A stretch of DNA of 16,978 nucleotides from IMG/VR virus record IMGVR_UViG_2778261643_000006, one strand, 5' to 3'. Position 1 is the first letter of the stretch, and the number at the start of each line of letters is the position of its first letter. Shown here one piece after another: positions 3,508 to 16,666 of the stretch. Source of the stretch: a virus. Lineage: Duplodnaviria; Heunggongvirae; Uroviricota; Caudoviricetes. Position numbers and translations under genes: made by a program. The notes under the pieces were generated by a model. It did no database searches and was not told the origin of the DNA. It saw only the letters and a program-made list of their open reading frames with translations.

Positions 3508-3783
3508 TTACTCAATAAAGATCATTGGCTTACCGTTAAAGCGTTCATGCCGTGTGACCGTCCAATGTTGTCCGTCATAAACAACGCGATCCCCGCGCCG
3601 TGGGCGGTATCCCGAAGAAAACACCACCAGAGAGACCGCAGGTCCGGACAGAGCATTCAGCTCTGCCAGTGTTTCTCCCGGGATCACAGTCATATCGACA
3701 TCATTAATCGAGGCTGTCTTTCCCATCTTTCTGACCGTGATCGCATCCATACGCGCTGCCAGCCGGGAAAAGGGATCAGACAT
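3508..3783 (-). CDS. Head-tail attachment protein (lambda gpFII-like)
   Basis: 91 aa; MSDPFSRLAARMDAITVRKMGKTASI...PRRGDRVVYDGQHWTVTRH parallels lambda FII (MADFDNLFDAAIARADETIRGYMGTSATI...LRRGDTLTIGEENFWVDRV). Position between head and tail genes. Confidence 0.7.
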   Translation of the reverse strand: MSDPFSRLAARMDAITVRKMGKTASINDVDMTVIPGETLAELNALSGPAVSLVVFSSGYRPRRGDRVVYDGQHWTVTRHERFNGKPMIFIE

Positions 3784-4099
3784 TGAGTTTTACCGGCACT
3801 TCTTCTGCACTGGTTCCGGCATCTGCCCAGACAACCCCGACCAGCGGATCAGAGCCGCTGTTAGTCAGCTGAACTTTTCCGGACTTCAGATAAACCTTCT
3901 TACCCGTTTTCATGTCATCCGTTTTCAGCTTAGGCAGCATAAACACACCTTCGGTCAGGACGTCGCCTGTTTCACCCTGTGGAATATCGGTCAGCGCCAC
4001 CGCAAAAACATCACCCACCTGCACCAGGTCTCCGCTGCTGATGGCTGCACTGGCAACAATCGCCACCGTTTTTCCTTCTTCTACAAAATTCTTTGCCAT
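3776..4099 (-). CDS. Small head-associated protein, DUF2190-like (putative decoration or capsid accessory protein)
   Basis: Translation from MAKNFVEEGKTVAIVASAAISSGDLVQVGDVFAVALTDIPQGETGDVLTEGVFMLPK... has the Gly/Val-rich pattern of DUF2190 proteins found next to major capsid genes. Start re-assigned to ATG 4097-4099 with GGAG upstream; the track start at 4144 lies inside the capsid terminator. Confidence 0.55.
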   Translation of the reverse strand: MAKNFVEEGKTVAIVASAAISSGDLVQVGDVFAVALTDIPQGETGDVLTEGVFMLPKLKTDDMKTGKKVYLKSGKVQLTNSGSDPLVGVVWADAGTSAEEVPVKLNV

Positions 4100-4185: not shown

Positions 4186-6213
4186 TTACGCCGTACATTT
4201 CACCAGACCGCGGTGATCAACTGGCGCGACACCGGCGTCAATACGCACTTTCGTTGTCACGCCATCCACACTGAAGCCCTCCATCTGATCAATATATGGC
4301 GTATCCACACCGTTGAGATAAGCCACTTCAATCGTATCGGAGCCTTTTGACGCAGCCAGGTAGAAGGTGGTCTGGCTGTTATCATCAAGACGAGGCTCTG
4401 CAATAACGGTCGCAAAATCTTTCACCGGGTTAATAATACCGGCGTTAATGTCAGCCCCCTTGACACTTGAGGAGCGAATGACCTGGTTAGCAACAGACTC
4501 CATCGCCGTCGGTACCAGTACGAACGCAGGACGAATATTCAGATGACGCTCCCCCTCTTTCTGAACGCGCATCAACTGGCGGGCTTTATCCAGCGATGCC
4601 ACGTCCATTGCAGCGCTCTCCAGTACGTTTGCATGTTTCGCTTTATCGAACAGACTTACATTATCTGTGGAGATTTTCGGGTTAGACGTCAGAATGGCAT
4701 AAACCAGATCGGCAATGGTGGATTTCGCCGCACGGCCCAGTTTCATCGGGACATCGGTCAGCATATTCAGATCATCATTGATAATGGCCTGACGGGTGAT
4801 ACTGAACAGCTCGCCATAGGTCGCCAGTGCAATAGTGGCCTGTTTATCTCCGGTGGTGACGTATTTATATTCCGCCCCTTCACGCACCTGACGCAGAGCA
4901 CTGAAGCCACCCATACCCACACGATGGGCAATTTTAAAATCAGACAACTGACCTTTCCGCGTCCACTGTTCATAGGTTTCAGGGGCATCTTCCCAGCCCT
5001 GCAGAATGGCTTTGTTCGCAACATCCAGCAGAATATTACCGAAGTCAGACGTACTGTGTGTGAACGCCGCACCGACCATCTGCATCGGGTTATAACCGGA
5101 AACCCCAATACCCCGTTCAGTTAGTGACATACGGGCATATTCACGCAGGGTCATCCCGTTGTAGACATTATCACGTTCGGTTTTTTCAAATCCGGCACGC
5201 GCCATCAGCGCCTGGCGGATCCCGTCCCCCACAAAATTACCGTTACCGGCATAAATATGAGCCGGGGTATTTTTATTGGATGGCGTGGACTCGCGCCCCA
5301 TCTCGTTCAACAGCTTTTCACGGGCCTGCTCCAGCGAACATTCAGGATCGGCAAGACACTGGGCCTGCAGCATCTGATAACGCCCGCCAAACATGGCAAA
5401 CAGATCATTAATACCGTTTACACGCGCTTTTTGCTCTGCCAGTACCTGCGCACGGATACTGTTTTCATCCACCACGGGTGCTGCTGCCTGCACTGGCGTC
5501 CGGGAGGCTGCAGGTTCATCATCCTGTACGCGTGGAGCACTGTTGCGTGGCGGAGTAATCATGTTTCGAATGGATTCCGGCATCTTTTTAAATTCCTCTG
5601 TACGTTTTGACTGAATACATGCCATTGCCTTAACGGCTGGTGTCACCTGATCAGCAAATCCCTGTGCCAGACATTCGGCACCGGACATCCAGGTCTCATC
5701 CGCCAGCATGGCAGCAATTTCATCGGTGGTTTTCCCGGTTTTCTGTGCATAAGCGGGTAACAGAACCGCCTCAACTTTATCGAGCAGGTCGGCATAGGTG
5801 CGCATGTCCTCCGCATCACCGCCCGTAAAGCCAAATGGTTTATGAATCATCATGAAGGAGTTTTCCGGCATAATGACCGGGTTTCCCACCATCGCAATGA
5901 CCGACGCCATTGACGCCGCCACACCGTCGACATAAACGGTAATGGACGCACCATGTGTTTTCAGTGCATTAAAAATGGCGATGCCTTCAAAGACATCGCC
6001 ACCCGGTGAATTGATATGGAGATTAATGTGGGTGATATCGCCCAGTGCATTCAGATCACTGATAAACTGCTTCGCTGTAACACCCCAGAAACCAATCTCG
6101 TCATAAATATAAATATCCGCGTCACTCTGGTGACCAGCCTGCATCCTGAACCAGGAATTATTCTTCGGACTGGTCGTCGGTGTGCTGCGGCTACTGTCGT
6201 TTCGTTGCGGCAC
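4186..6213 (-). CDS. Prohead protease (ClpP/S49-like) - scaffold-like linker - major capsid protein fusion
   Basis: One uninterrupted ORF. N-terminal part (DIYIYDEIGFWG...INSPGGDVFEGIAIFNAL...ASMASVIAMVG...MIHKP) looks like a ClpP-like phage prohead protease. A charged, Ala/Gln-rich middle segment is scaffold-like. The C-terminal roughly 330 aa looks like a major capsid protein, of a family not recalled with certainty. Start proposed at GTG 6211-6213 (AAGGAGG 5 nt upstream), overlapping the portal 3' end as lambda C overlaps B; alternative ATG at 6144. Confidence 0.75.
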   Translation of the reverse strand: MPQRNDSSRSTPTTSPKNNSWFRMQAGHQSDADIYIYDEIGFWGVTAKQFISDLNALGDITHINLHINSPGGDVFEGIAIFNALKTHGASITVYVDGVAASMASVIAMVGNPVIMPENSFMMIHKPFGFTGGDAEDMRTYADLLDKVEAVLLPAYAQKTGKTTDEIAAMLADETWMSGAECLAQGFADQVTPAVKAMACIQSKRTEEFKKMPESIRNMITPPRNSAPRVQDDEPAASRTPVQAAAPVVDENSIRAQVLAEQKARVNGINDLFAMFGGRYQMLQAQCLADPECSLEQAREKLLNEMGRESTPSNKNTPAHIYAGNGNFVGDGIRQALMARAGFEKTERDNVYNGMTLREYARMSLTERGIGVSGYNPMQMVGAAFTHSTSDFGNILLDVANKAILQGWEDAPETYEQWTRKGQLSDFKIAHRVGMGGFSALRQVREGAEYKYVTTGDKQATIALATYGELFSITRQAIINDDLNMLTDVPMKLGRAAKSTIADLVYAILTSNPKISTDNVSLFDKAKHANVLESAAMDVASLDKARQLMRVQKEGERHLNIRPAFVLVPTAMESVANQVIRSSSVKGADINAGIINPVKDFATVIAEPRLDDNSQTTFYLAASKGSDTIEVAYLNGVDTPYIDQMEGFSVDGVTTKVRIDAGVAPVDHRGLVKCTA

Positions 6214-7666: not shown

Positions 7667-7878
7667 CAGAACCTCGCCAGCCGGTACCCGGGATGCCCCC
7701 GTCGTCGTGTAATCAGAGCCGCAAGGCGGCGCTCCCACTCCTGCCGCCCCTGCCGGATCTCAGATAAGTTTTCCATGGTCATCTGCTGACCATTAAAGGT
7801 GACGGATTTTCCGTCCAGCACCGCCATTTCAGCTTCCGTATAACGCTGAATCATGGCTTCGATATCATTCTGGTTCAT
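7666..7878 (-). CDS. Head-tail joining protein (lambda gpW-like)
   Basis: About 70 aa with C-terminal ...ITRRRGHPGYRLARF, resembling the lambda gpW C-terminus (...TQRRRGPAGFYV). Start at ATG 7876-7878 with GGAGG 6 nt upstream, overlapping the terminase stop as ATGA. Confidence 0.75.
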   Translation of the reverse strand: MNQNDIEAMIQRYTEAEMAVLDGKSVTFNGQQMTMENLSEIRQGRQEWERRLAALITRRRGHPGYRLARF

Positions 7879-9974
7879 AACCATCCTCCGGAAGTCAGCC
7901 AGGGGTTAACATCGTCAGTTACTGTTTTCTTCCGTTTTTGTTTTTTAACAGGCGTGGATACCGGTTCCGGTGTGGGTGACGGTTCGGTACTGTCCGGGAC
8001 ACACTCCAGCCAGGTTTCCCGGCTCGCCCACTCCGGTGCATCCGGCCAGCGGATCTTTTCGTATCCATGCAGAATGACCAGAGCCTCGGCATACACCATC
8101 AGGTCAAAAGCTTCGTTGGCACCGCGACCTGGCTTACTCCATTTCCCGTCACTGCTCCGCTCTTCATACGTCAGTTCGTCGTAAAACCAACTCCCCAGCC
8201 AGTCAGGGAAATGCACATAGCCGGGACCTGGCGAGTCACGCCATAACGCGTTATTCACCCGGTCTTTCAGTGCATCCGTCTGAAGAAGCCAGAGCGGCAC
8301 ATCACCTGCGGCCTGCGCCCGTCGGCCCGTTCGTCCGGTGTTATCAGGGAATGTACGGGTGATCAGTTTTGCGCGCCGGATGCTGTCGCCCTTAAACAGG
8401 TAAATACGTTTACCAAGGCCATCACGACGGCAACGACGCCAGAATTTATAGGCATTATCAGTGACCCCGTCTTCACCGCCGGAGTCCACCGCCATTGCCA
8501 TCAGTCGCATTTGTTGAGAAGGATCGGAGGCCAGCGGCCAGCTTTTATGAAAAACATCCGTCAGCAGGACATCCCAGTCTTCCGGATAGCTGGCCGGATC
8601 AATTCGCTGGCTCTCCCCGTCGCTGTCACCGCGCAATGACTGCGTGATGTTGTAACGATCAATAATCCAGCGTTCGCCACGGCTGCCATAGCCCGTTACC
8701 TGAACCACAAAACGGCGATGACGTCCCGCCTGCACATCCACTGTCGCCACAAGGAAATTAATGCCATCCGGCACACTGCGGGAAGGAACTGGCTCTGCCC
8801 GCTGCTCAAGCAGTTCACTTTTTCGTTGCTCCATGCTGGCACGAGGAAGATAAGGCAATCCCCAGTCGGTGTTGATAACCGCCCTGAGTGTTTCTTCGCT
8901 TCCTGTCGCTTCATACTCCTGTTCTGCAGTCAGTAATTTGTAAACCAGTTGCGCCCAGGTCTGATACGCAGCAGCTGGCCCTTCCATCCAGAAACTGGCG
9001 ATACGGGAGCGGCGCGGTTCACCGGAAACGTTGCCGTTACGATCAATGACCTGACCTTCACGCAACCAGACTCCTGCACTATTGAGCTCACGCTTTTTCT
9101 CCGCAGTGATAATGCCGCTGCAGTGCGGGCAAAGTAGATACGCCGCCTCACTGGCTTTAAAGGGATCCGGTTCATTACGGTAGCCGGTCATGGCATCCAT
9201 GGCTGGCTGAAAATATTCACCGCAGTGCGGACATGACCAGTACCAGCGGCGGCGGTCACCACGATTGTAAAGGGAAAGAATACCAGTCGTCGGTGGCGCT
9301 TCATGAGGCGACTTACGTCGCCATTTGCTGTCGCAGATGTCACGTCCCGGCGAGCTCTCCACCAGAGTCATCCCGGCGGACATAAATGTGGTGGTACGTT
9401 TTGAGGCCAGGGAGAAACCATCACCCTCGCTGTCGATATTCTCCGGAAAACGGTCGTAATCGGTTAAGGCGACAAACCGGTAATCCGACGACGACATAAT
9501 GTTGACCGAGGGCCAACCAATTTTAAGGAACGAGCCATCCCTGAACGTCTTATCATGGACATTATTGTCGTTACGACGTGGACTCATTCTTTTCTTTACC
9601 GCCGCACTGCTTCTGAACGTTCTGTCGAGGCGCTTTTTAGAATGCTCGCGGGCCTTATCTTCGGTCATCTGCACAACGAGCATGTCCGAAGGATCGCAAA
9701 CGATGGTATAGACAATCCATCCATCGATCAGACCAATGGTCTTCCCTGTTCGCGCAGGACCAACAAAAATCACCGCATCGTATTCACGCGATGCCAGGCA
9801 GTTCATGGGCTCAATGATGTAGGGTGTCAGTTCAGGATCCCATGGCACCGAGTTACCAGCCCCCTTGGGAACACGCATGAATTTTTTAACAGCCTCCGAA
9901 ATCGGCATGCGACGTGGTGGGGAAAATCCTGCCGATATGTCCCTTCCCAAATTTCGGGCTGATGAAAAACCCAT
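7875..9974 (-). CDS. Terminase large subunit (lambda gpA-like)
   Basis: 699 aa. N-terminal ATPase region with Walker A-like VGPARTGKT, paired Cys motifs (CPHCGEYF...CPHCSG) and a C-terminal nuclease region, in the arrangement of lambda gpA. ATG 9972-9974 is preceded by GGAGG directly after the Nu1-like stop. Confidence 0.92.
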   Translation of the reverse strand: MGFSSARNLGRDISAGFSPPRRMPISEAVKKFMRVPKGAGNSVPWDPELTPYIIEPMNCLASREYDAVIFVGPARTGKTIGLIDGWIVYTIVCDPSDMLVVQMTEDKAREHSKKRLDRTFRSSAAVKKRMSPRRNDNNVHDKTFRDGSFLKIGWPSVNIMSSSDYRFVALTDYDRFPENIDSEGDGFSLASKRTTTFMSAGMTLVESSPGRDICDSKWRRKSPHEAPPTTGILSLYNRGDRRRWYWSCPHCGEYFQPAMDAMTGYRNEPDPFKASEAAYLLCPHCSGIITAEKKRELNSAGVWLREGQVIDRNGNVSGEPRRSRIASFWMEGPAAAYQTWAQLVYKLLTAEQEYEATGSEETLRAVINTDWGLPYLPRASMEQRKSELLEQRAEPVPSRSVPDGINFLVATVDVQAGRHRRFVVQVTGYGSRGERWIIDRYNITQSLRGDSDGESQRIDPASYPEDWDVLLTDVFHKSWPLASDPSQQMRLMAMAVDSGGEDGVTDNAYKFWRRCRRDGLGKRIYLFKGDSIRRAKLITRTFPDNTGRTGRRAQAAGDVPLWLLQTDALKDRVNNALWRDSPGPGYVHFPDWLGSWFYDELTYEERSSDGKWSKPGRGANEAFDLMVYAEALVILHGYEKIRWPDAPEWASRETWLECVPDSTEPSPTPEPVSTPVKKQKRKKTVTDDVNPWLTSGGWL

Positions 9975-9982
9975 TATTCCTC

Positions 9983-10510
9983 CTAGAGACTCTCTCCTTC
10001 CTCATCAGGAATTAATTCAGCAGCACAAGCCTCGTAGGATTTTTCCTGAAGAGTGTATCGCAGGTCATCAATTGCCTGCTGTACAACGCCGACGGCCTGA
10101 GGAGTCAGGGCGCAATCGCGTTCAAGAACATCCGGAATTGTCTCCAGAACCTGGACGACAGCCTTTCTCATGGACGAATAGACGATGACTACTTCATCAA
10201 CGGGGATGAGTTTTCGCTGCTCCTTTTCCAGCTTGATCCTTTCATTTTCAGACTGGTACCAGTCCTTTCTCTCTTTCGGCTCCATACGGGATGGATCATG
10301 AACAGAGTCTGCTGCCTCATGCTTCACACTAAACAGGGCTGGCCCGACATGCTGCAGGGCGTAAACGGGGTTCCCCCTGACAGTCGCAGCCACAGGAGTG
10401 TTGGCCGCGAGACGCCGTTTTTTTACTGTGTCCCGGTGAAGCCCAAAGGCCTCAGCGATTTTAAAAACACTCCAGTAATAAGCATCACCGATCCCGCTCA
10501 CATTTGACAT
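9983..10510 (-). CDS. Terminase small subunit (lambda Nu1-like)
   Basis: N-terminal helix-turn-helix-like region (YYWSVFKIAEAFGLHRDTVKKR) and ERKDWYQSENERIKLEKEQRKL parallel lambda Nu1 (KWYAERDAEIENEKLRREVEEL). Sits directly upstream of the large subunit. Start re-assigned to ATG 10508-10510 (GGAG upstream). Confidence 0.75.
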   Translation of the reverse strand: MSNVSGIGDAYYWSVFKIAEAFGLHRDTVKKRRLAANTPVAATVRGNPVYALQHVGPALFSVKHEAADSVHDPSRMEPKERKDWYQSENERIKLEKEQRKLIPVDEVVIVYSSMRKAVVQVLETIPDVLERDCALTPQAVGVVQQAIDDLRYTLQEKSYEACAAELIPDEEGESL

Positions 10511-10539
10511 AAGCAACTCCATCTGGCAGGTGAAAATCA

Positions 10540-10734
10540 TGTTTATTTATATATTTCAATTAATTGTAAACTGATCTAATGACAGGGAGAAAAAAATATT
10601 GTACAGGTAAAAAGAGAAATAACTTTTAATTATCAATAAATTACCAAACATGCTGCCGCCGCCATGGAAATGCAAAAACTAGCCTTTTTCCGCGACGCTC
10701 CCGCCCCGTGGCAGGGGCCCCCACCGGGAGGACC
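10540..10734 (-). other. Putative cos region (cosN-like core near 10690-10710, cosB-like AT-rich segment toward Nu1)
   Basis: Minus strand reads CACGGGGCGGGAGCGTCGCGGAAAAAGG, closely parallel to lambda cosN and flanks (TTACGGGGCGGCGACCTCGCGGGTTTTCGC), followed by an AT-rich segment before the Nu1-like start, as in lambda. Confidence 0.45.
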
Positions 10735-10783
10735 CGACAGCCTGACAGCCTGACAGCCTGACAGCCTGACAGCCGTGACGAGC
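10735..10783. repeat. Direct tandem repeat of the octamer CTGACAGC (4 perfect copies with degenerate flanking copies)
   Basis: Read directly: cgacagc ctgacagc ctgacagc ctgacagc ctgacagc cgtgacgagc. Units are head-to-tail with no spacers. Located on the upstream (cosQ) side of the cosN-like core. Confidence 0.9.
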
Positions 10784-10910
10784 ATCTGATACAGCGCTTT
10801 ACATAATGGCATAGGAATAATTCAGAAGGACATCACAGCATGCCCACACAAATTAGTGTGAGTGTCCTGTTTCTTCCTACGCACAGGACTGACGAGCATG
10901 AGGGGAAAAT

Positions 10911-11078
10911 ATGCGAACCATAAATGCCTCATCTTCAGCAATGCAGCCGGCATCCGAACAGGACGATATTGTAAATTCACCTAATTACGAGGACATTGCA
11001 GTAGTTGAATTGCAGCTCTGTATTAGCCTGACAGTGACAGAATGCGATATTGACTCTGTCACAGGTGAAATAGTTTGA
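10911..11078 (+). CDS. Hypothetical small acidic protein (55 aa)
   Basis: ATG at 10911 preceded by GAGGGGAAAAT; translation MRTINASSSAMQPASEQDDIVNSPNYEDIAVVELQLCISLTVTECDIDSVTGEIV. Below the ORF-track size cutoff. Convergent with the 68-aa ORF. Confidence 0.35.
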   Translation: MRTINASSSAMQPASEQDDIVNSPNYEDIAVVELQLCISLTVTECDIDSVTGEIV

Positions 11079-11098
11079 ATGATTAGCAGTTATGGTGC

Positions 11099-11305
11099 TC
11101 AGTCAACCACCAGGGAATAATCCTTCGAATTCTTATCGTGCTTCACCAACGCTGCCTCAATTGCCCTGAATGCTTCCAGAGACACCTGATGTTCTATACA
11201 TGCAATTACAACATCCGGGTAACTCATAGAAATGGTGCTATTAAGCATATTTTTTACACGAATCAGATCCAACGAGAGTTCATCAGCAGATTGTTCTTTA
11301 TTCAT
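11099..11305 (-). CDS. Hypothetical small protein (68 aa)
   Basis: ATG 11303-11305 with GGAG upstream; protein-like composition ([68 protein letters not shown]). The antisense track ORF 11138-11344 is Cys/His/Arg/Phe-rich and looks spurious. Confidence 0.5.
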
Positions 11306-11605
11306 TTTGTCGCTCCATGCGTTTGCTCGTCATCTAGCGGTTAAAATATTACTTCAAATCTTACTGCATAAAAGAGGAAAAGTATGAAAGTTTGAGTACA
11401 TCGACCTTACATACATCTGTCGGTTGCATATCCCTCCTGGATGCCAGCAAGGCTCAATTTTGTTACGCAATCAACACTATTCATTAAAAACAGGCTTAAT
11501 ATTTGACATAAATCATCAACAAAACACAAAGAGGTCAGACCAGATTGAAACAATAAACACGATAATGCAAACTACGCGCCATCGTATCACATGGAAGGTT
11601 TACCA

Positions 11606-12016
11606 ATGGCTCAGGCTGCCATTTTTAAAGAAATATTCGATCAAGTGCGTAAAGATTTAAACTGTGAATTATTTTATTCTGAGCTAAAACGTCACAATAT
11701 CTCACTTTATATTTACTATTTAGCCACAGATAATATTCACATTGTGTTAGAAAACGACAACATAGTGTTAGTAAAAGGACTCAAAAAGGTTGTAAATGTT
11801 AAATTCTCCAGAAACAAACATCTTATAGAGACCTCCTATAATAAGTTGAAATCAAAAGAAATCACATTTCAACAATACAGGGAAAATCTTGCTAAAGCAG
11901 GAGTTTTCCGATGGGTTACAAATATCCAGGAACACCAAAGATATTACTATGCCTTTGATAACTCATTACTATTTACTGAAAGCATCCAGAAAACTACACA
12001 GATCTTACCACGCTAA
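11606..12016 (+). CDS. DUF1398-family protein (YdfO/YbcV-like), 136 aa
   Basis: ATG 11606 preceded by GGAAGG; translation [51 protein letters not shown].... Length and position (between cos/terminase and gnsB) match K-12 Qin ydfO as recalled; the family assignment is from memory. Confidence 0.65.
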
Positions 12017-12024
12017 ACCATAAC

Positions 12025-12053
12025 GTCCGGCTTCTCTCACTCCTGAGCCGGAC
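12025..12053 (+). terminator. Hairpin downstream of the YdfO-like gene (possible weak terminator)
   Basis: GTCCGGCT - 13-nt loop - AGCCGGAC, followed by TGCATTGGTTT; the U-tract is weak. Confidence 0.3.
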
Positions 12054-12104
12054 TGCATTGGTTTAATAAAAACCATCAACAATTGTGATTTAGATATTCG
12101 GAAC

Positions 12105-12140
12105 CATTCAAATATAACAAAACCCCGTAAAAACGAGGTT
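12105..12140 (-). terminator. Putative Rho-independent terminator downstream of the gnsB-like gene
   Basis: On the minus strand: AACCTCG-TTTTTA-CGGGGTT imperfect hairpin followed by TTGTTATATTTG. Confidence 0.4.
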
Positions 12141-12167
12141 TATGGATAAATTTTATTATTGAATACA

Positions 12168-12344
12168 TCAGATTAAATTAATCTTGACATCATAGCTTTC
12201 AAGACCCGTCATTTTTTCCCGTGCGGTAAACTGAATACTGGTAACTTCTTTCCCGGTCTTTTTCTTAAGTTCAATAATTTTTTTTGTTATATATTCAGAA
12301 ATATCTGCTTCTGCTTTTGTTTTTAAGTTTTCAATATTCATCAT
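12168..12344 (-). CDS. gnsB: GnsA/GnsB-family small protein (58 aa)
   Basis: Not in the ORF track (under 60 aa). Translation MMNIENLKTKAEADISEYITKKIIELKKKTGKEVTSIQFTAREKMTGLESYDVKINLI matches the GnsA/GnsB family. AAGAGGAA precedes ATG 12342-12344. Confidence 0.8.
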   Translation of the reverse strand: MMNIENLKTKAEADISEYITKKIIELKKKTGKEVTSIQFTAREKMTGLESYDVKINLI

Positions 12345-12389
12345 TTCCTCTTTTAGTCTGTTATGACTTTCCAGTTACACAGTAAGTCG

Positions 12390-12420
12390 ATTATATGGTG
12401 CAAACGTGTAAAAGATAAGA
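12390..12420 (-). promoter_or_regulatory. Candidate sigma70 promoter for the gnsB-like gene (perfect -10 TATAAT, weak -35)
   Basis: Minus strand TATAAT at 12395-12390, about 45 nt upstream of the gnsB-like ATG; best -35 at 17-nt spacing is TTATCT. Confidence 0.3.
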
Positions 12421-12512
12421 TGAAACATCGCAATAATCAACATACGATAGTCTAAATTTTACACAAACAGACAAAGAGAATTTTCCTGAATTATCAATAC
12501 AATAGCATCAAA

Positions 12513-12743
12513 TCAACTCAAGAGCCTTATTGCTGCTTCCAGAATTTCTTCTGAAGTAACATGTCGATCCGCGGCTACATAAATGACTTTATGATCTCCG
12601 GTCAGAGATGGAAACCCTGCGGCCATTACAGTAAGGTGTGTTTTTTCGCCATTTGGATATTCACGCATGATGGTGTTAACTCCAGTCATCGCTGGCACTA
12701 CCACTGCTGGTTCAGAGTTAAAAAAAACTATGATTTTTTTCAT
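12513..12743 (-). CDS. Small protein, YnfN-like by position (76 aa from ATG)
   Basis: Translation MKKIIVFFNSEPAVVVPAMTGVNTIMREYPNGEKTHLTVMAAGFPSLTGDHKVIYVAADRHVTSEEILEAAIRLLS. The track ORF begins at an upstream TTG; ATG at 12741-12743 chosen, with weak SD. The gene between gnsB and cspI in K-12 Qin is ynfN; the sequence itself was not recognised. Confidence 0.6.
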   Translation of the reverse strand: MKKIIVFFNSEPAVVVPAMTGVNTIMREYPNGEKTHLTVMAAGFPSLTGDHKVIYVAADRHVTSEEILEAAIRLLS

Positions 12744-12785
12744 GATGTTACCGTAGTATGTGAGTATCCATCGAATAGATACCAA

Positions 12786-12807
12786 GCAAAAAAGCTCCCG
12801 AAGGAGC
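12786..12807 (-). terminator. Rho-independent terminator downstream of cspI
   Basis: On the minus strand: GCTCC-TTCG-GGAGC hairpin followed by TTTTTTG, about 200 nt downstream of the cspI stop. Confidence 0.6.
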
Positions 12808-13014
12808 CTTCATTTTCACTTTTTTAAATCCAACGACAGACGGCTGGCATTTAAGTATTGTGAAATATTATCAAATGTAATCATCATTGATTTACAAAAG
12901 ATACATTTTGCCCCGAAAGGATTCATGTCAGAAACATCAAAAGATGATGTTCTATACTGGGAACCATGACAACACGGGCATCTAAAGTGAATATGGTTTG
13001 TAATATTGTCTACC

Positions 13015-13227
13015 TCAAAGCGCCACTACATGAACAGCGGCAGGACCTTTAGGTCCGTTCTCAATACCAAATTCAACTTCCTGATTCTCAGTTAATGTTT
13101 TGAAATCGTTGCTCTGAATTGCTGAGAAATGGACAAACACATCTTTGCTGCCATCTTTCGGCGTGATGAAACCAAAACCTTTTTCAGGGTTAAACCATTT
13201 CACTAAACCAGTCATTTTGTTAGACAT
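13015..13227 (-). CDS. cspI: Cold-shock protein CspI (CspA family)
   Basis: 70 aa, [70 protein letters not shown], with canonical cold-shock RNP motifs (KGFGFI, VFVHF). Matches K-12 Qin CspI as recalled. Confidence 0.9.
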
Positions 13228-13323
13228 AATTATTACCTTTTGAAGAAATTAGCCCTTGGGCAGAATGGTCCGAAAAAAAATATCAGAGAGAAAAACCAAC
13301 AAGGAAATCTCAAGAGGTACAAA

Positions 13324-13345
13324 TAATAAAATTATAACAATGACT
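13324..13345 (-). promoter_or_regulatory. Candidate extended -10 promoter (TGtTATAAT) for cspI
   Basis: Minus strand TG-T-TATAAT at 13339-13331, about 100 nt upstream of the cspI ATG within an AT-rich leader region. No convincing -35. Confidence 0.3.
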
Positions 13346-13590
13346 GCTTCAGATAAATTTGTAACAAACCAGAACACCATTAACGCATGATTAACCACCC
13401 ATAGCAAGGATTACTTTTGTAAAGAAAAACACAGCAATGAAAGAATAGCTTTATTTATTAATAATAACGTGTCATTCTGATTAAGACCTTTTATCTTACC
13501 CTTAAGATTTCAGGAATTTTGGCTCATGGAAGAGTCCTTTTTATTTAAATTTTACATTCCGCGATGTAAATGTTCCGATTTAATATTACC

Positions 13591-14614
<1,024 letters not shown>

Positions 14615-14618
<4 letters not shown>

Positions 14619-15616: not shown

Positions 15617-15899
15617 TTGAGATTGTGGTGCTTTTTGTGGGAGTCATCCACTTACGCACTTTGTTTTGCCATGCCAGCAGTTAGCTTCTGCTGTAAAACT
15701 ATTCATGCAGCAAACCTGCACTTCACCACAATGGTTAGCATACTTTTCCTGATTAAGATTTTGCCAAATATGCTGGCCATTGTTTCATGTATTGGACCTC
15801 CTTAATTTTTATTAAAGAAATCCAATATTCACTACTCTGTCCGTATCTCTACTCAGGCATCAGCCTTCTTCGTTATCGTATACAGACGAGCGATGAATT

Positions 15900-16115
15900 T
15901 TAATCAGTAATGATGACATTTGCTGCTGCAGGACCTTTAGCACCACTCTCTATAGAGAAGGTAACCTTTTGACCTTCAAATAAGGTTCGATAATTATCAT
16001 TCTGAATCGCAGAAAAATGCACAAACACATCTTTACTACCATCAACAGGAGAAATAAAGCCGAAACCTTTATCAGCGTTAAACCATTTTACTAAACCAGT
16101 CATTTTATTTGACAT
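15900..16115 (-). CDS. cspB: Cold-shock protein CspB (CspA family)
   Basis: 71 aa, [71 protein letters not shown]. Divergent from cspF as in K-12 Qin. Confidence 0.9.
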
Positions 16116-16415
16116 TCTACATTCCTTAACTTGAGCCTTTCGGCATAAATGGTTTGCATAACAGAAACGACTTCGTACTTAATTGGAGAGACTCAAAGAA
16201 GGAATAAGTGAATAACACCTGAAATGAGAACTGCTTTAGTAAACTACTTCGTATATCGTCTGTTCTTCAAACCGACGCAATCATTAACGCATAGTTGAAC
16301 ATATGAAGCAATGTTTATTTTAGACATCCAGCCATCTTCAACCCCATCAAAAAACTATAGCTTTCTTCAGGAACGTGTGTATAGTGCGCCAAGTTATCAG
16401 TATTAAGGAATTTTT

Positions 16416-16616
16416 TTGTCCCGTAAAATGACAGGAATTGTCAAAACCTTTGACGGCAAAAGCGGCAAGGGTCTTATCACCCCATCCGATGGTCGTATCG
16501 ATGTCCAGCTTCATGTTTCAGCGCTCAATCTCCGCGATGCAGAAGAAATTACCACCGGATTACGCGTGGAATTTTGCCGGATAAATGGTCTGCGTGGCCC
16601 TTCAGCTGCCAGGTGA
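16416..16616 (+). CDS. cspF: Cold-shock-like protein CspF, 3' end interrupted by IS1 (last codons and stop supplied by the IS1 terminus)
   Basis: TTG start at 16416 with TAAGGAA 5 nt upstream; [27 protein letters not shown]...[16 protein letters not shown]. The ORF stops at TGA 16614-16616, inside the IS1 left end beginning at 16612 (GCC AGG TGA). CspA-family proteins normally extend a few residues past GPxAA. Confidence 0.75.
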
Positions 16617-16666
16617 TGCTGCCAACTTACTGATTTAGTGTATGATGGTGTTTTTGAGGTGCTCCA

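Follow-up and report, generated by a model that had tools for sequence, protein, structure and literature searches.

The IMG/VR virus record IMGVR_UViG_2778261643_000006 (Caudoviricetes) comprises 16,978 nucleotides (nt) of DNA, hereafter the window, and positions 10800-13590 of it hold small genes on both strands that are autonomously organised and flanked by Rz and a lambda-like cos. Reading from Rz, these are cspI, ynfQ, ynfR, ynfN and gnsB, which together with the cspI promoter lie in what is called unit B below (12100-13420), and a DUF1398 gene of the ydfO type divergent from a ybcW-like gene, which make up unit A (10950-12035; Table 1). Megablast searches with 10800-13590 returned 100% identical copies in many Escherichia coli chromosomes, where RefSeq names the products cspI, ynfQ/ymcF, ynfR, ynfN, gnsB, DUF1398 protein and hypothetical protein, and the segment is ~99.8-100% identical to the Qin region of E. 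coli K-12 and to Tritos, a functional prophage of strain LF82. In a lambdoid E. coli prophage of the Qin/Tritos type, this region forms the annotated cargo (moron) end of the late operon, and as a combination of Qin/Tritos morons with the lambda-type ybcW/ydfO pair it is already known and mostly ordinary. An earlier sequence-only reading had put it forward as the best candidate for uncharacterised function, a claim that fails because a thermometer in the cspI 5' untranslated region (UTR), the cold induction of YnfR, the effect of gnsB on lipids, a nuclear magnetic resonance structure of YdfO (2HH8) and crystal structures of GnsA (4XO1/4XO2) are known; every gene is annotated in K-12 Qin, and several have been studied.

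That reading did find all of the genes that it named at the places given for them (cspI, YnfN, GnsB, DUF1398/YdfO and two convergent small open reading frames, ORFs), but it overlooked ynfQ and ynfR, and one of the convergent ORFs, of 55 amino acids (aa), looks non-coding. Its placement between Rz and cos holds, with the end of Rz at 13591 and cos supported just outside the segment. The late genes of the window lie on the minus strand. As expected of morons, the small genes sit between phage modules with a promoter and terminators of their own (the cspA-type promoter, T1 and T2, in the Rz-cos slot), and they are dispensable for lytic growth, lambda being without cspI..gnsB and mEp460 without ydfO. 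We consider it quite probable that this moron end is made of two independent units, unit B being a cold-shock cassette and unit A the ybcW-like/ydfO pair.

Table 1. Features of the window in and around the Rz-cos slot
Feature	Position	Strand	Basis or remark
Large terminase	7875-9974	-	
DUF1441 small terminase	9983-10540	-	its start at 10540
Probable cosN cohesive-end sequence GGGCGGGAGCGT	10695-10706	-	ends of the Tritos record; just outside 10800-13590
Tandem 8-mer CTGTCAGG (minus strand), 5.4 copies	10736-10779	.	TRF score 79; repeat scan
55-aa ORF (phrog_4035), probably not a gene	10911-11078	+	PHROG 1.2e-41
YbcW-like 68-aa protein (lambda p79 homologue, phrog_657)	11099-11305	-	ORF intact in lambda
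PdhR-box-like palindrome TGGTCTGACC (inside ATCTGGTCTGACCTCTT)	11533-11542	-	ybcW/ydfO divergent intergenic region
ydfO/YbcV-type DUF1398 (lambda p78 homologue)	11606-12016	+	PF07166 2e-43; PDB 2HH8 1.1e-66
Strong hairpin, ydfO 3' end, boundary of units A and B	12025-12053	.	-20.3 kcal/mol, z -5.2
Intrinsic terminator T2 after gnsB	12120-12141	-	folds as terminator
gnsB (GnsA/GnsB family, 57/58 aa)	12168-12341	-	PF08178 3.1e-35
Candidate gnsB -10 TATAAT	12391-12396	-	perfect TATAAT, weak -35; read from sequence
ynfN, intact 76-aa form	12513-12743	-	PHROG family of unknown function only
ynfR, 21 aa, overlaps T1	12748-12813 (12812/13)	-	RefSeq annotation
Intrinsic terminator/attenuator T1 after ynfQ, stem AAGGCUCC-UUCG-GGAGCUUUUUU	12787-12811	-	-14.9 kcal/mol, z -2.7, U-run
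ynfQ (YmcF-like, CxxC...CxxC, 62 aa)	12816-13004	-	PF23641 6.9e-32; RefSeq coordinates
cspI (CspA-family cold-shock protein, 70 aa)	13015-13227	-	PF00313 1.6e-31; RefSeq WP_000066495.1
cspI long 5' UTR, cspA-type RNA thermometer	13228-13373	-	Rfam RF01766
Predicted cspI promoter: -35 TTGCTA 13402-13407, 18-nt spacer, -10 TTAATG 13378-13383	13378-13407	-	conserved with cspG
Rz	13591-14088	-	Rz1 nested within
Endolysin	14085-14618	-	

Two units in one moron slot

In the cryptic K-12 prophage Qin the genes nohA-ynfO-ydfO-gnsB-ynfN-ynfR-ynfQ-cspI-rzpQ (b1548-b1553) have the same order and orientation, and from cspI to gnsB the DNA is nearly identical, promoter, 5' UTR and both terminators included, with a few bases differing. 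The two prophages differ in that the window has a ydfO allele of the type known from lambda and DLP12 (ybcV) and a ybcW-like gene in place of ynfO (DUF3950), ynfN is intact at 76 aa where the K-12 gene has a 1-nt deletion and is annotated with 51 aa, and the prophage is complete, with the DUF1441 terminase, portal and capsid. Closer still is Escherichia phage Tritos (OV696610), prophage 3 of the adherent-invasive E. coli strain LF82 and a functional, virion-forming one, which has the same genes at 99.9% identity over 95% of 10541-13590; its annotation lists a 51-aa ynfN, whereas the window form is the intact one of 76 aa. The more distant phage lambda fills the same slot with Rz-bor-lambdap78-lambdap79-cos. 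Here window 10953-12035 has 89.6% DNA identity to lambda 47023-48090, which holds lambdap79 (68 aa) and lambdap78 (DUF1398) in a likewise divergent arrangement with the same TGGTCTGACC site and a similar cohesive end, while bor lies exactly where cspI..gnsB sits in the window, which bears out the slot between Rz and cos as a moron site. The packaging genes differ, lambda using the Nu1/A terminase and the window DUF1441/TerL.

A survey of 5426 complete E. coli genomes established that the island consists of two independently assorting units. Unit B was found in 2152 genomes and was at least 80% in one piece in 2095 of them (97%); at an identity of at least 90% it is intact in 39% of all genomes surveyed. 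Unit A occurs in 2620 genomes, is at least 80% covered in 1402, and is also found as ydfO-only and ybcW-only fragments and in as many as five copies in one genome. For the island as a whole, at least 80% is covered in 439 genomes only. These counts bear directly on the idea, which extends the sequence-only suggestion of a host-physiology module, that all six to eight genes of the 2.8 kb act together as a single system of host physiology or defence. The crowding of all genes into one intergenic-rich, AT-rich stretch from Rz to cos speaks for it, as do the 439 genomes with the full set, but the combination is far rarer than either unit, and known prophages take the units apart: lambda carries unit A with bor in place of unit B, mEp460 carries unit B and ybcW without ydfO, and in still other prophages unit B is accompanied by ynfO, another ydfO allele and a Nu1/A terminase. 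A PADLOC scan added weak or generic cold-shock-domain matches only. A single functional island is therefore extremely unlikely, and the random distribution that the sequence-only reading had named as refuting the group is seen in part only: cspI, ynfQ, ynfN and gnsB are tightly linked, whereas ydfO and ybcW assort randomly with respect to unit B. Likewise, the proposed theme of cold shock and membrane lipids applies to part of the island only.

The linkage within unit B extends to viral contigs and across terminase types (the contig counts here and the species-locus counts below are pattern counts over loci). Among IMG/VR contigs, which are close relatives of one another, those anchored on GnsB had cspI at a fixed spacing of 855 nt in 79 of 79 assessable cases, and gnsB was present on 75 of the 77 anchored on YnfQ. 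The unit travels with at least three packaging modules, namely DUF1441/TerL as in the window, lambda Nu1/A with a K-12-type ydfO and ynfO, and Terminase_4/TerL.

Layout and expression of the cspI-gnsB unit

The leading gene of unit B encodes a CspA-family protein. The CspI translation shows the ribonucleoprotein motifs KGFGFI and VFVHF, scores 108.4 bits against the PF00313 cold-shock domain (CSD; cut-off 27) and is identical to WP_000066495.1. Its long 5' UTR is covered by a match to the Rfam cspA thermoregulator (RF01766) at window 13373-12988 on the minus strand, with 112.8 bits against a gathering score of 78 and a model span of 1-428; at E<=1 over 10400-13700, Rfam gave no RNA element other than this one. 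The start of the match agrees with the length of the cspI UTR, which we take to be 145 nt. Dimethyl sulfate probing has shown that the K-12 cspI UTR is an RNA thermometer whose structure switches between 37 and 10 °C (PMC13271884); temperature switching was thus demonstrated for the K-12 UTR, and the window copy is a putative thermometer by its Rfam match. A second thermoregulator match, of 158.8 bits, lies at window 15884-16276 (minus strand) over cspB, between Q and holin, so that the prophage has two cold-shock thermometers flanking its lysis cassette, plus cspF.

An AT-rich tract precedes the predicted cspI promoter, which a generic promoter scan missed; the scan reported 7 sites versus 10.8 in shuffled sequence and is not used as evidence. 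The sequence-only reading had listed four regulatory sites and credited the genes on both strands with terminators of their own. The terminators stand, 12786-12807 and 12105-12140 both being such sites, and 12390-12420 contains a TATAAT with a weak -35, but 13324-13345 is not a promoter position because it falls within the 5' UTR delimited by the Rfam match.

Downstream of cspI, YnfQ scores 109.9 bits against PF23641 (cut-off 27), is 66% identical to YmcF and carries the motif CPCC...CIFC; it appears to be a zinc-ribbon-like small protein. Its gene starts with ATT at 13004, 10 nt past the cspI stop codon, with a Shine-Dalgarno (SD)-like GAGG overlapping that stop. The same ATT start at the same spacing is found at the cspG-ymcF locus, in a second prophage (locus L168), in an insertion between ybjP and ybjQ (L169) and at a distant locus linked to icd (L172), and the stop-overlapping SD-like motif (TGAGG or TAAGG) with the ATT start was kept in every csp-linked ynfQ/ymcF copy examined. 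The L168 prophage has a frameshifted ymcF (CIFANQQ-stop, 4300-4430) next to intact cspI, ynfN and gns, a change that may have arisen by genuine decay or by an error in sequencing.

A hairpin at the position of T1 is also found in the cspG locus, L168 and L169; ynfR, which overlaps T1, is not conserved in L168. The 76-aa product of the next gene, ynfN, is conserved in Citrobacter. At window 12720-12727 ynfN has a run of eight T where K-12 Qin has seven, and K-12 YnfN is annotated as 51 aa because of this 1-nt deletion, the intact protein being 76 aa long. Searches for a solved structural relative of YnfN, YnfQ and YbcW gave none.

GnsB scores 120.3 bits against PF08178 (cut-off 27; profile positions 1-54 of 54) and is 67% identical to K-12 GnsA. 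Multicopy gnsB raises unsaturated fatty acids, and pCA-gnsB allows a relA fadR strain to overcome its cold sensitivity; levels of 16:1 and 18:1 are restored by the paralogue gnsA and, according to Sugai 2001 as cited there, by gnsB too. The gene probably has its own, weak promoter, with the TATAAT at 12391-12396, which the promoter scan did not report.

The names attached to PF08178 and to its RefSeq entry ('GnsA/GnsB family addiction module toxin') suggest another reading, in which gnsB and the upstream ynfN act as toxin and antitoxin (an addiction pair) and so keep the prophage stable. GnsA-YmcE is listed in the literature as a type II pair, and YnfN and YmcE are both of 76 aa and occupy the same position. 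However, YnfN has no detectable similarity to YmcE and the DNA does not align, and the idea that the two are homologues was rejected. The two genes do not overlap and are separated by 171 nt, gns accompanies csp-ymcF without any 76-aa gene at L169-171, ynfN occurs without gns at L172, K-12 combines a frameshifted ynfN with an intact gnsB, and multicopy gnsB rescues growth instead of arresting it. The adjacent, co-inherited antitoxin expected of a type II system is thus missing, ynfN being unrelated to YmcE, 171 nt away and absent from some gns loci, and an addiction pair is very unlikely.

Published expression data come from the K-12 and Tritos copies. In K-12, cspI, ynfQ and ynfN respond in parallel to azidothymidine (AZT), LexA and SspA, with AZT induction of 6.5-, 5.9- and 5.8-fold and SspA dependence of 38-, 42- and 51-fold, respectively (PMC11228462). 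A cspI mutant loses in competition in long-term stationary phase, where the log2 fold changes of cspI and ynfN are near-identical (PMC7406224), and YnfR-SPA, whose tag lies downstream of T1, is strongly cold-induced (PMC6001520). Since these AZT/SspA and stationary-phase responses run in parallel and YnfR-SPA is cold-induced, cspI, ynfQ and ynfN most simply form one transcription unit. Transcriptomics of the 99.9%-identical Tritos classed CspI and YnfN as morons, expressed 93 and 27 times above the prophage background in LB medium (PMC9928086), in keeping with the earlier prediction of expression independent of late transcription; by analogy, lysogen expression outside the lytic programme may hold for cspI and ynfN in the window, the Tritos data covering these two and not gnsB, ydfO or ybcW. 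Gene identities, the thermometer match, the terminators and synteny were read directly from the DNA compared here, and expression in the lysogen is taken from this literature.

From these data we infer that cspI-ynfQ-T1-ynfR-ynfN is a cold- and stress-induced transcription unit in which T1 lets some transcripts through, gnsB being served by a promoter of its own. The cspA-type promoter would yield an mRNA whose 145-nt thermometer UTR hides the ribosome-binding site and start codon at 37 °C and is opened in the cold, so that the RNA chaperone CspI is made. YnfQ would be translated from the ATT codon just past the cspI stop, and hence in a fixed, low ratio to CspI; T1 would stop most transcripts, and read-through, frequent in the cold or under stress, would give YnfR and 76-aa YnfN. 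GnsB, made from its own weak promoter and bounded by its own terminator, would when abundant shift membrane lipids towards unsaturated fatty acids. A lysogen with such a cassette would have more RNA-chaperone capacity, and more scope to keep its membrane fluid, at low temperature and during long stationary phase. CspA-family proteins reportedly act as transcription antiterminators, in work by Bae and colleagues in 2000, and T1 could on this analogy be Csp-sensitive.

Several observations weigh against this picture. The expression data stem from the K-12 Qin and LF82 Tritos copies and not from this exact sequence. Read-through at T1 may be plain leakiness rather than regulation. YmcF-like genes also stand alone with an ATG start in Klebsiella, so coupling to csp is not obligatory. 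GnsB is not listed together with cspI and ynfN and is absent from the co-induced genes in all three expression data sets, so that its link to the cold response is drawn from synteny and overexpression phenotypes. For unit A, the evidence on the regulator PdhR taken up below concerns the DLP12 copy and not the copy in the window.

Moron slots often hold exclusion genes, and an anti-phage or superinfection-exclusion function of the cassette would find its effectors in the CSD protein, as in retron Se72 or the PADLOC family CSD_V, or in a nuclease-like DUF1398. CspI does score 50 bits against NF038236 (retron_eff_Se72), below the cut-off of 82, and PADLOC reports CSD_V at 3.2e-15 and YdfO against REase_II at 2.8e-4. 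Against these stands the 137.8 bits of CspI against the CspG model, which marks it as a bona fide CspA paralogue, so that the retron and CSD_V matches are generic CSD similarity; the REase_II match is far below family significance, and no partner reverse transcriptase, ATPase or nuclease was found in the domain and PADLOC scans. The PADLOC scan of ten ORFs yielded nothing usable as a defence system and no partner genes, in agreement with the earlier remark that no defence hallmark was present, and a defence role is most improbable.

Mobility and origin of csp-ymcF-gns

Beyond E. coli prophages, ymcF appears to be the widest element of the array and csp-ymcF a common pair. Among 80 species-representative YmcF loci, ~50 keep csp at an identical distance, and in 21 a gns gene follows in the same orientation after 0.5-0.95 kb; wherever gns or ynfN was seen, it lay behind a csp-ymcF pair. 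Both latter families are small: Gns comprises 188 clusters from Escherichia, Citrobacter and a few others, and YnfN 60 clusters. Citrobacter chromosomes have CSD-YmcF-YnfN (76% identity)-Gns in this order, preceded by what is left of an Rz 3' end, and the same four genes lie in another assembly between Rz and a different terminase, again with an Rz relic ahead. At L169, the insertion that separates ybjP from ybjQ consists of CSD-YmcF-T1-Gns and has no 76-aa gene, and a fourth lineage (L172) has CSD-YmcF-YnfN (60% identity) without Gns. This nested csp-ymcF-(ynfN)-gns synteny, together with a likely origin of the block in prophages, would be the modestly new element of the analysis.

The Rz relics are 3'-end fragments of Rz (DUF2514) directly upstream of the csp promoter, at 3566-3796 of a Citrobacter locus (L166) and, as a second copy, at 3548-3703 of the L168 prophage; given their position, the cassette seems to move as Rz'-csp-ymcF-ynfN-gns. 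In Citrobacter (L165/L166) the cassette is followed by YnfU-like zinc-ribbon and YnaM-like small proteins (5872-6036 and 5437-5553), families also present in Qin and Rac, which hints that a wider set of prophage-derived small proteins travels with csp. Three records with off-lineage titles, a Veillonella parvula metagenome-assembled genome (MAG; L178), a Mucilaginibacter MAG (L228) and a Chryseobacterium sp. (L249), hold enterobacterial ymcF loci, one of them 100% identical to E. coli, and are most likely contamination or mis-binning.

A paralogous array, cspH↔cspG-ymcF-ymcE-gnsA, belongs to the K-12 core chromosome. It shares with unit B DNA paralogy over the csp promoter and coding sequence (CDS), ymcF/ynfQ and gnsA/gnsB (at the identities given above) and the position of the terminator, but it has no phage genes, its middle gene ymcE is unrelated to ynfN, and its cspG promoter and 5' UTR resemble those of this prophage's cspB, not cspI. 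When core locus L002 1950-2900 was compared with window 15700-16650 and 12790-13420, cspH, the intergenic region and the cspG promoter/5' UTR matched cspF↔cspB at 70-95% per 40-nt bin, and the 3' half of the CDS and ymcF matched cspI-ynfQ (62-82%), not the DNA downstream of cspB. To judge from these alignments, the core cspH↔cspG-ymcF locus looks like a mosaic of the cspF↔cspB and cspI-ynfQ of such a prophage, with the crossover inside the csp CDS. Most simply, cspB and cspI of a Qin-like prophage would have recombined long ago, with loss of the lysis cassette (holin, endolysin and Rz), and the Rz relics of Citrobacter point the same way, to a prophage origin of the core locus.

It is tempting to go further and regard csp-ymcF-(ynfN)-gns as a mobile cold-adaptation cassette that arose in lambdoid late regions and was repeatedly domesticated, the core locus being a relic and T1 a Csp-responsive attenuator, a proposal that we advance tentatively and hold to be rather doubtful as a whole. 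Were it true, the attenuator would allow YnfN, and perhaps GnsB, to be made only once the RNA chaperone had accumulated, coupling membrane-lipid adjustment to the cold-shock response. The idea bears on whether cspG, cspH, ymcF and gnsA, members of the E. coli cold-shock regulon, were acquired from prophage late regions, and the tight synteny of gns and ynfN with csp-ymcF across genera hints at a cold-shock role for the products of both genes.

The conservation also speaks to whether the small genes are merely decaying hitch-hikers without selected function. The frameshifts in K-12 ynfN and in the L168 ymcF would fit that account, as would the non-coding appearance of the 55-aa ORF, yet it is at odds with the share of complete E. 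coli genomes in which unit B is intact, with a gene order kept across genera at 60-80% protein identity, with the third-position substitution bias of YdfO described below, with the strong expression of cspI and ynfN (PMC9928086) and with the defeat of the cspI mutant in long-term stationary phase (PMC7406224). We regard decay as having a very slight probability.

The ybcW-like/ydfO pair and the cos end

Unit A is also carried next to cos by lambda, DLP12 and many other prophages, and its boundary with unit B is marked by the hairpin at 12025-12053, which has no clear U-tract and at which homology to lambda begins. YdfO scores 147.7 bits against PF07166 (DUF1398; cut-off 22; profile positions 1-119 of 119), and its gene is transcribed against the late direction. 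Substitutions relative to lambda fall 7/6/21 over the three codon positions, a third-position bias. The lambda gene lambdap78 is annotated with a longer N-terminus (177 versus 136 aa in total), and the cause is a 1-nt difference (GGT-AAACC versus GGTAAAACC) ahead of the ydfO start, at window 11606 / lambda 47575. An AlphaFold 2 model of YdfO from a shallow alignment had a mean predicted local distance difference test score (pLDDT) of 49 and was unusable. The PHROG label 'head protein' for DUF1398 (phrog_413) was set aside as carry-over, the gene being antisense to the late operon and outside the head module; the 'putative envelope protein' label found for the family among the PHROG and RefSeq names looks equally unsupported.

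For the YbcW-like protein, searches of Pfam and the PDB gave no relative, and its PHROG family is one of unknown function. The 55-aa ORF was rejected as a gene despite its strong PHROG match: the lambda copy is interrupted by stop codons and indels, and the substitutions fall evenly on the three codon positions (11/10/12), from which we take it to be probably no gene.

Between ybcW and ydfO lies a single PdhR-box-like site, with 0.03 matches expected by chance, and the surrounding ATCTGGTCTGACCTCTT is the same sequence as a site between ybcV and ybcW of DLP12. The latter was recovered for PdhR by systematic evolution of ligands by exponential enrichment, and in a pdhR mutant the mRNA of ybcV and ybcW was down 10-fold and 8.9-fold (PMC7660256). 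Unit A would thus probably be controlled by the host regulator PdhR.

At the far end of the region, the last base of the linear Tritos record corresponds to window 10707 and its first base, at which GGGCGGGAGCGTCGCGG begins, to 10706, which places the probable cosN. The lambda cohesive end, which we take to be GGGCGGCGACCT followed by CGCGG, resembles this Tritos/window end. Repeat scans found only the tandem 8-mer array and chance pairs. In the direction of packaging the array precedes cosN by 30-70 nt, with 3 copies near cos in Tritos versus 5 in the window, and its position recalls cosQ; an extra copy of the 8-mer is present at ~11020, within an inverted repeat after ybcW that is conserved in lambda.

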